From: a virus
Taxonomy: Duplodnaviria > Heunggongvirae > Uroviricota > Caudoviricetes
Length of the DNA stretch: 64,000 nucleotides
Virus record (IMG/VR): IMGVR_UViG_2880378312_000006
Direction: 5' to 3' (one strand)
Position numbers: made by a program. Position 1 is the first letter of the stretch. Every line of letters starts with the position of its first letter. Below, piece by piece: positions 39,001-42,000 of this stretch.

Positions 39001-42000
39001 CTGGCGTTCGAAGAAAAGCATGGTTCCCAGGTTGATTTAATTTTTCGTTTTCTTGATCACGCCTTTGCAACCGGCGTGCTCGGGTAAAAGAGGTTACTGA
39101 TGCGTATAGAGTTTGTTTTGCCTTACCCGCCGACGGTGAACACCTACTGGCGACGTCGTGGCAGCACATATTTTGTATCAAAAGCCGGTGAGCGTTATCG
39201 CCGGGATGTGGCACTTATTGTTCGCCAGCAGCGGCTGAAATTAAACCTGTCCGGAAGGCTGGCGATAAAGATTATTGCAGAGCCACCGGATAAGCGCCGT
39301 CGTGACCTGGACAATATCCTGAAAGCACCACTGGATGCGCTGACGCATGCCGGACTTCTCATAGACGACGAGCAGTTTGATGAAATCAATATTGTGCGCG
39401 GCTAGCTCGTTTCTGGTGGGCGGCTGGGCGTGAAGATTTACAAAATTGAAAGTGAGTGAGCATAAATATGATATACCCGGAAATTACAGGCAAAAGCGGT
39501 GAGCATTTACGCCTGAAAACGCTGGAAAGTGTCTGGATCCAGGGGAAACTGCGTATGTGGGGGCGTTGGTCGTATATTGGCGACGGTAAGACGGGAAATA
39601 TGTTCAACCAATTACTGACCTCTAAAAAGCTGACAAAAACGGCAATTAACGAGGCGCTCCGGAGGATGAAAAAAGCGGGTCTGGACAAACCTGAACTTGA
39701 GGCTTTTTTGCGGGATATGATCAACGGCAATCAAAAAAGCTGGCTGGCACATTGTACCGATTCAGAGGCGTTAATAATCGATAGGGTTATTGGTGAAGTA
39801 CTGGCAGGTTATCCCGGGCTGCTCAATGTTCTGAGTCAGCGTTATGTGGGGCGGGGGATGACTAAGCGCAAAATGGCTGAATTGCTGAATGATGCACATC
39901 CGGAATGGAGTTTAAGAACCTGTGAAAGACGCATTGAGCATTGGCTAAAGGTGGCAGAATTTATTTTGTACAAACCAATGGTTATGGCTTTTGGTATAGA
40001 GAAAAAAGTTATTGCTTTTTGACGTAAAAACTGCTTCAATTCCGGTAAGCTTCGCAAAGCTGTACCGCGAGGCGAATAGCAGACATGGACATTTGAAAGA
40101 GCCCGCTTTTTGCGGGTTTTTTTATGACTGAAAAACGGCACGGGGCGTTAAACGCGCTGGTGGTTGCTAATACCGGTCTTTCAACTTGCTGGCTTTTTCG
40201 ACAAGAGTTATTGGTATGTCACGTTAACCGGAAAAGGGAAAAAGACATGCTAAAACAGCAGGATATGACAGAAACCGCCAGAGTGGTGTTTAATGAATTA
40301 AGCGTTACCGAACCGGCGACAGTCGGGGAGATTGCGCAGAATACTTACCTTTCACGCGAACGCTGCCAGTTAATACTGACCCAGCTGGTTATGGCGGGTC
40401 TGGCAGACTATCAGTGCGGTTGTTACAGACGCATTCAGTCCTGAAGGCTTTTTATTTGTGGTAAATGGGCGGCTGGTGGGGGGGGCGGCACCTGTCAGTC
40501 CTTTGCTTATGTGTTGATGATAATTTACCTTTTGGGGCTATAATTGAGCTAACCAATTGCTAATGAAAGTAAAATTATAATGGCTGTTGTCTGTTCAGTT
40601 ATCATGGTTTGCTCCCCAATTAATATTTTTCTTGAAAAGGATACGTTGTCACTTAAGCCAGGCTCAGTCGTTCTGGCCACCAAATGCATCAGGGAGCTTT
40701 TCCTTATGCATTATGGCAAAGTTAAAATTGTCGATATAAGCGAATCCGTCGTAAGTCAATATCTGGAAAGTCAGCATAAGCTGACGAGGACTCGTCTGAC
40801 TGACATTCCGCTTTACCTGTTGCTGGAACCCAACAATCCTGCGTTGGCTGCGGCTTTAATTACCAGCCAGGGATTTTCCGGAGAGGTCACGGATATGTTT
40901 CTTATGATGGCCTGCCTGTCTCTGTTTGAAACAGATGAACGGATGTCATTGTTTTTAAGTGGATGTTTATCCAGCATAAGTGCCAAAGTCAGGGCGATAA
41001 TTCAGACAGATATATCAGCAAGCTGGACGCTTGGTGCGATTGCTCTACAGTTGCATATGAGTGAGAGTTTGTTAAAGACAAAACTGAAAAATGAAGGGGG
41101 CATGTTCAGTCGCTTGTTGCTGGAAGAGCGGATGCGTGTTGCTGTAAATATGTTATGTTCCCGGTATGGATATGGACAGGCTGTAGCAGAAAAATGTGGT
41201 TATTCAAGCCGGTCCTACTTTATTTCTGTATTTCACCGCTATTATGGCTTCCCGCCAGACAGATATGTATCCAGGCAAGGGCTTGATTATTGATTTTCAT
41301 CTGATTATTATTTTTTGGCTCGGCCCTTTAGCTCAGTGGTGAGAGCGAGCGACTCATAATCGCCAGGTCGCTGGTTCAAATCCAGCAAGGGCCACCATCA
41401 CAAACCGCCATTAGCTTATCAGGAAGAGCAGACGACACCATAACAGGGTTGTTGGTGCGGGGCCGGGTCCCCGATGGCGGTCCATTATCGGTATTCTGCG
41501 TTGTTAGCTCAGCCGGACAGAGCAATTGCCTTCTAAGCAATCGGTCAGTGGTTCGACTCCACTACAACGCGCCACACTTATTTTCCAGGCTCGCTTCGGC
41601 GGGCCTTTTTTGTATCTGCGCCACGCCCGGCGCATACCAACCACAGAGCCTTTCGGGGGTGAGCTTACGGAGTGGTCAGTGTGACTTTCTCTGTGGGCAG
41701 ATCGCTCCCGGGCGTTGGCTCACCCACCCAAAGGAACGTCACGATGTTTGGAATCTTCAAAAAGAAAACCCGCAGAGCGGCAACGGAAATTAAAAAGTTT
41801 GAAAAACGCGATCTGGCACAGGTGGTGATTAACGCCGCATACCTGGTGGCCTGTGCAGATGGTGAATGTGAGGCATCCGAGAAAGCGAAGATCGAACAGG
41901 TACTGCGTAATCAGCCTGCGCTGTCCGCGTTTACGTCAGAAATTAATGCGATTAGCGCAACCATTATCGGTCAGCTGGATACGAACTTTAAAACTGGTCG

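Follow-up and report, generated by a model that had tools for sequence, protein, structure and literature searches.

A relative of known structure of the gene product analysed here is RusA of Escherichia coli K-12, which is encoded by the DLP12 prophage and represented in the PDB by the structures 1q8r, 2h8c and 2h8e. In its monomer, two helices flank a mixed β-sheet of four strands, and the dimer interface is formed between the sheets; roles have been described for the catalytic residues D70, D72, D91 and K76 (K-12 numbering; PMC1636454). The prophages of E. coli O157 bear many inactivating lesions (Asadulghani et al. 2009, PMC2669165). The DNA under study (hereafter the window, i.e. the whole stretch of 64,000 nucleotides) is a segment of an E. 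coli O157:H7 chromosome consisting of lambdoid prophages, and its rusA region is 100% identical to many complete O157:H7 genomes. The rusA product encoded by the window belongs to the same Pfam family as K-12 RusA and aligns with it over residues 5–116 (E = 1.6e-22) with an identity of about 37–38%, the Asp-Asp-Asp-Lys catalytic residues being conserved. The product of the window, however, stops at the position matching residue 102 of the K-12 protein, so that the last strand is missing.

The truncated rusA gene and its product

The features of the rusA locus are as follows (coordinates of the window).
38038–39087, plus strand: DUF968 (YdfU-like, HNH-related) gene of the nin-type region (TR01 annotation of the identical sequence; Pfam 259 bits)
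39100–39405, plus strand: truncated rusA ORF, with ATG at 39100, 101 sense codons and then TAG
39403–39405, plus strand: premature amber codon TAG, from CAG (Gln102) by a C-to-T transition at 39403
39406–39459, plus strand: orphaned 3' end of rusA, 17 codons (LVSGGRLGVKIYKIESE) and the original TGA (39457–39459)
39468–40022, plus strand: intact Q-like DUF1133 gene (RefSeq; DUF1133 349 bits, model positions 1–176 of 176)
41322–41397, plus strand: prophage tRNA with anticodon CAT (tRNA-Ile in RefSeq; Ile2/Met(CAT)), non-suppressor
41498–41574, plus strand: prophage tRNA-Arg with anticodon TCT, non-suppressor

Reading the frame from the ATG at 39100 bears out the original prediction that the RusA-like protein stops at the TAG after residue 101 and that the same frame is open for another 17 codons, up to the TGA (LVSGGRLGVKIYKIESE*). 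The in-frame codons following the TAG are CTC GTT TCT GGT GGG CGG CTG GGC GTG AAG ATT TAC AAA ATT GAA AGT GAG TGA, and none of the 17 sense codons has been hit by an additional mutation when compared with intact orthologues. The tail had been proposed to align with the conserved C-terminus of RusA; it is, indeed, identical to the C-terminus of the intact protein WP_001217447.1 and can also be aligned with K-12 RusA (1q8r). The truncated ORF by itself passes the threshold of the Pfam RusA family (PF05866), with 58.1 bits (cut-off 22.8) over model positions 1–109 of 124, and the read-through version scores 59.9 bits over positions 1–123 of 124; the gene can be classed with the RusA family as a truncated representative. 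In RefSeq, the 101-aa product is represented by WP_001217444.1 ("RusA family crossover junction endodeoxyribonuclease") with no pseudogene flag, and an annotation remark pointing to its C-terminal truncation would be appropriate. A naturally short RusA isoform was also considered and rejected. In an alignment of 26 homologous sequences, 24 of them full-length and a few with N-terminal extensions, the full-length proteins are all longer (118–134 aa, or 115–126 aa by another count), so that no related intact RusA in the alignment naturally ends at this position.

The original TGA had been described as overlapping the start of the Q-like gene. This applies only if the upstream in-frame GTG at 39456 is taken as the initiation codon, and does not hold for the start annotated in RefSeq, the ATG at 39468, which lies 8 nt past the original TGA and 62 nt past the new TAG; the protein begun at this ATG is matched by the Pfam DUF1133 model from its first residue. 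The Q-like gene also gives a weak match to the Pfam model Phage_antitermQ. The order DUF968, rusA, Q-like gene, shared with phage Evi, places rusA in a nin-type position just upstream of the late-gene activator. The nin-type region of λ is dispensable for lytic growth and silent in the lysogen. By analogy, the rusA gene of the window, located in a nin-type delayed-early region with the replication genes on one side and the late activator on the other, should be dispensable for lytic growth and silent in the lysogen as well. The surroundings of the rusA/Q module also contain cargo, namely a YgiW/YdeI-family stress-tolerance protein (114 aa, 37298–37642) near the module and an AraC-type helix-turn-helix regulator (237 aa, 40580–41293) just upstream of the prophage tRNAs, neither of which normally belongs to the lambdoid core.

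The catalytic residues D70, D72, D91 and K76 of the K-12 protein correspond, in the alignment to 1q8r, to D69, D71, D90 and K75 of the window's RusA, and all of them precede the stop, i.e. the truncated ORF retains the catalytic set of the family. The fold fares differently. An AlphaFold2 (AF2) model of a full-length relative 96% identical to the window's RusA (mean pLDDT 84.8) superposes on 1q8r with a TM-score of 0.86 and places the core strands at residues 2–7, 54–60, 93–100 and 109–115 and the helices at residues 28–43 and 70–83. The stop removes 18 residues (102–119), including the last of the four core β-strands (109–115), and the 101–108 loop of the model is lost as well. Judged by the model strands and the fold described for RusA (PMC1636454), the truncated product thus falls short of the complete four-stranded structure. 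Furthermore, residues G107, R108, K112 and I113, all encoded 3' of the stop, are invariant among the aligned RusA homologues. Because the last core β-strand, belonging to the sheet that forms the dimer interface, and these invariant residues are missing, we infer that the truncated RusA is probably misfolded or unstable, or unable to dimerise, and hence inactive, its catalytic residues notwithstanding.

Origin and distribution of the amber allele

Comparison with intact rusA genes from related prophages reduces the lesion to one C-to-T change in a gene that is otherwise identical. Base by base over 360 nt, the rusA genes of SMN197SH3 and UTAK-4 differ from that of the window solely at position 39403, where they have C instead of T, and hence a CAG codon (Gln102) and an intact 119-aa RusA (WP_001217447.1). 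The same protein is encoded in LSU61 and PV15-279 and in Shiga toxin-producing E. coli (STEC) of the serogroups O145, O111, O121 and O103, by DNA the same across the gene as in the window but for the one base, so that it reads CAG and extends to the full 119 aa where the window has TAG. The loci of WP_001217447.1 share with the window the DUF968 gene upstream and the DUF1133 Q-like gene, the AraC-type regulator, tRNA-Ile and tRNA-Arg downstream. The genes neighbouring rusA are the same as in the window in LSU61, PV15-279, UTAK-4 and SMN197SH3, and LSU61 and PV15-279, which like UTAK-4 are O157:H7, carry the intact allele in the same gene order. Over about 6 kb (35400 to about 41480), the window differs from LSU61 at four positions and from PV15-279 at three, two of these differences (39403 and 39782) being common to both. 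Position 39782 lies in the Q-like DUF1133 gene and is T in the window and C in LSU61, PV15-279, UTAK-4 and SMN197SH3, the change being synonymous (Asp105).

In the column of the homologue alignment that corresponds to Gln102, Gln is the commonest residue, with Leu, Lys and Val also present. Since intact orthologues are one base away and Gln prevails in the homologues, CAG is ancestral and TAG was derived from it by one transition. The homologue alignment, genome probes and IMG/VR contigs agree in that TAG occurs in no diverged rusA homologue and in none of the homologues outside one clone. A sense codon one step away (CAG to TAG at 39403) and a lesion limited to one lineage are both features of a recent nonsense pseudogene.

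To describe the distribution of the two alleles, exact matches to a 91-nt probe centred on 39403 were counted in complete E. coli genomes. The TAG version is found in 256 complete genomes, and the strains sampled from the list are either O157 or given without a serotype; the CAG version is found in 124. The two counts add up to 380, which is also the number of records at least 99% identical to the whole rusA gene, and the TAG and CAG sets are therefore essentially disjoint. Carriers of CAG among the strains seen include O145:H28, O111, O121, O103:H2 and O45:H2, and also four strains labelled as O157 but representing early or atypical lineages, namely LSU61, 493/89, PV15-279 and F3113. LSU-61 is regarded as an intermediate between O55:H7 and later O157 branches in the stepwise evolution of O157:H7, and 493/89 is listed among sorbitol-fermenting O157 strains (PMC7175801). 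In IMG/VR, 14 contigs have exact flanks of the site, ten of them with C and four with T at 39403, and no other base was encountered there. In protein records, the 101-aa product is present on at least 999 contigs and the 119-aa product on at least 1000. Two of the IMG/VR contigs carry other lesions in rusA: L019, with the CAG allele, is interrupted early by another stop, at codon 18, and L025, with the TAG allele, has an additional upstream frameshift and an L-to-P change. Either could reflect further decay or an error of draft assembly.

As judged from the strains sampled among the 380 genomes, typical O157:H7 most likely acquired the mutation on its own branch. Reversions or independent origins of the TAG allele may also have occurred. 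In the sampled strains, T at 39403 could serve as a marker of lineage, separating typical O157:H7 from LSU61, 493/89, PV15-279, F3113 and the non-O157 STEC that have the same module.

We consider it highly probable that the amber codon arose recently by a nonsense mutation confined to one clone, in a prophage rusA that is not essential, and reflects ordinary decay rather than special decoding. In this scenario, a single C-to-T change at 39403 would have turned Gln102 (CAG) into amber (TAG) in the rusA gene of an O157:H7 lambdoid prophage; translation would end 18 residues early, yielding a product that keeps the catalytic Asp and Lys residues and is deprived of the final β-strand. The loss would probably have been close to neutral, because rusA is expected to be silent in the lysogen and intact paralogues exist in the genome, and the allele would have been carried along as typical O157:H7 expanded clonally. 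TR01, a genome bearing the TAG allele, has eight rusA-like places, and one rusA, located in its ompW prophage, is annotated as intact and encodes a 124-aa RusA. The tail is still intact because the mutation is young; its freedom from further changes fits a young clone, and taken alone may also be compatible with selection acting on the tail. Two points speak against a loss of activity, namely that all known catalytic residues are retained and that RefSeq does not treat the gene as a pseudogene. Of the two readings offered in the original prediction, a recent nonsense mutation or a gene depending on amber suppression, the former is upheld by the single C-to-T change, the undecayed tail and the occurrence of TAG only in O157 or unlabelled strains; the latter is not, as discussed further below.

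The prophage context and the neighbouring integrase remnant

The window contains a second gene with an in-frame TAG, located in the relic of a neighbouring prophage. A type III effector island lies between the two prophages (11708–23787). The annotated features of this region are the following.
11708–12238: DUF1076/NleG-like gene
12578–13903, minus strand: nleA
14564–15500, minus strand: λ-type integrase remnant of the neighbouring prophage relic, N-terminus missing, in-frame TAG at 15370–15368
20209–20856: nleG
21040–21630: espM1
23137–23787: DUF1076/NleG gene, ending in TAG
within the effector island: espO-like gene

The interruption of the integrase at 15368 by TAG, noted earlier, was verified on the minus strand (15370–15368). 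The remnant reads ILS*RG at this site, where λ Int has ILASRG. The gene is annotated as "internal stop; incomplete" in F1273, and in the Sakai prophage Sp9 the corresponding place beside nleA is taken by the integrase pseudogene ECs_1813; the remnant is unrelated to rusA. The left neighbour in the window is thus similar to Sp9 in having both nleA and an integrase pseudogene, but Sp9 has nleH1-2 and nleF between the integrase pseudogene and an IS256 fragment, both of which are missing from the window. The IS256-family fragment adjoining the integrase remnant (15649–16283) is interrupted by ISEc8 (16531–18972).

The prophage that carries rusA seems to be composite. Its left arm with int, xis and exo (about 24900–28200) is situated beside an ompW fragment and represents the ompW-integrated prophage type, as in F1273, in which, from about 27000 onward, the downstream genes are different, rusA and Q among them. 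To the right of about 28186 (28186–54448), the window matches a prophage located beside rspB in PV15-279 and present also in LSU61 and TR01. The exact hybrid junction is found in only about 24 complete genomes. This arrangement suggests that the rusA prophage combines parts of the ompW prophage with parts of a second one, through recombination or an inversion between the two in one O157:H7 sublineage.

Alternative explanations and comparison with known lesions

The amber allele might be leaky, in that a near-cognate tRNA-Gln would occasionally read UAG-C and provide a little wild-type RusA, the gene being attenuated rather than null; we regard this as very unlikely. The stop codon stands in the context GGC TAG CTC, the following base being C, and UAG-C may terminate less efficiently. 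The ancestral residue is Gln, so reading by tRNA-Gln would restore the original residue, and in K-12 a low level of rusA expression is enough for the suppression of ruv mutants. Termination efficiency depends on the base that follows the stop, with C at the +4 position raising read-through in yeast, and suppressor-free E. coli is reported to incorporate glutamine at UAG (Nilsson & Ryden-Aulin 2003, cited in PMC5289835); both observations lend some plausibility to leakiness. The sequence itself does not encourage it: no feature promoting read-through was found, the RNA fold predicted for 39395–39500, which spans the stop and the Q-like start, being not more stable than that of shuffled sequence (z = 0.91), and there is no sign of selection for an attenuated state. 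In wild-type E. coli, moreover, basal read-through of UAG is low. The TAG allele may yield traces of wild-type RusA, and nothing suggests a designed feature.

Still less probable is a stronger version of the same idea, according to which decoding of UAG-C by tRNA-Gln makes for an attenuated allele whose lower RusA dose or reduced coupling to the Q-like gene was favoured in typical O157:H7. If true, the advantage would be tied to a chromosome that, like that of O157:H7, houses many mutually homologous lambdoid prophages.

We give even less credence to the truncation itself having been selected, be it for removing a nuclease that would harm a genome with many homologous prophages, for making a dominant-negative subunit, or for lowering translational coupling to the Q-like gene and thereby damping prophage induction. 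The presence of TAG in 256 complete genomes, all apparently O157, would fit such a scenario, but hitch-hiking equally predicts sharing of an allele inside a young clone. A single origin, with no recurrence seen in other lineages among the sampled strains, and the persistence of intact rusA paralogues in the same genome likewise argue against selection. As for coupling, the new stop lies 62 nt before the start of the Q-like gene as opposed to 8 nt for the original one, yet no RNA structure linking translation of rusA to the Q-like start was found in 39395–39500.

The least probable of the biological explanations, to our mind extremely so, is that rusA is recoded or depends on suppression, its TAG being decoded by a suppressor tRNA that the host or a co-resident phage would supply. 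Some phages do reassign TAG, the window has two in-frame TAGs (in rusA and the integrase remnant), and in the copy of the prophage carried by LSU61 none of the 43 annotated CDS has TAG as its stop (25 end in TGA and 18 in TAA), which is mildly unusual (P about 0.03, assuming that TAG accounts for 7–8% of stops). Similarly, no plus-strand ORF of at least 110 aa ends in TAG between positions 29500 and 64000 of the window. We considered this avoidance of TAG as a hint of recoding and rejected it, the signal being weak and nearby effector genes stopping at TAG. The codon serves as a normal stop in the annotated effector gene at 23137–23787 and in an ORF at 19220–19555, both in the same window. A search with ARAGORN revealed two tRNAs in all in the 64-kb window, neither of which is a suppressor with a CUA anticodon as would be anticipated for a recoded gene. 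Neither the diverged homologues nor the closely related prophages, furthermore, have the TAG, and it does not recur in essential genes, the large late genes all being open and ending in TGA or TAA. The integrase TAG, finally, belongs to a gene that has lost its N-terminus as well and is annotated as a pseudogene. The proposal that rusA is expressed only with amber suppression thus finds no support, the window having no suppressor tRNA and the diverged homologues no TAG. A sequencing or assembly error, for which resequencing had been suggested, can be dismissed outright, the exact 91-nt TAG allele being shared by 256 independently assembled complete genomes and four IMG/VR contigs and the 101-aa protein by at least 999 contigs.

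A recent nonsense mutation in a dispensable prophage gene is, therefore, the explanation we retain, with hitch-hiking in the expanding clone as the probable way in which it spread. Nonsense alleles are common in prophage genes and this kind of lesion is already known; the allele itself is already in RefSeq and UniRef. We found no paper mentioning the truncation of rusA in O157 prophages, and the rusA lesion is not mentioned by Asadulghani et al. (2009, PMC2669165). Biologically, it carries little weight: the prophage pool of O157:H7 is decaying, and this adds a further inactivating lesion to it. It is comparable to the classical amber alleles of lambdoid phages and to nonsense pseudogenes of the defective O157 prophages (PMC2669165), all of which are likewise single-base nonsense lesions in prophage genes. 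The TAG in the rusA gene of the window, however, is no laboratory mutant and represents a natural allele common to typical O157:H7.
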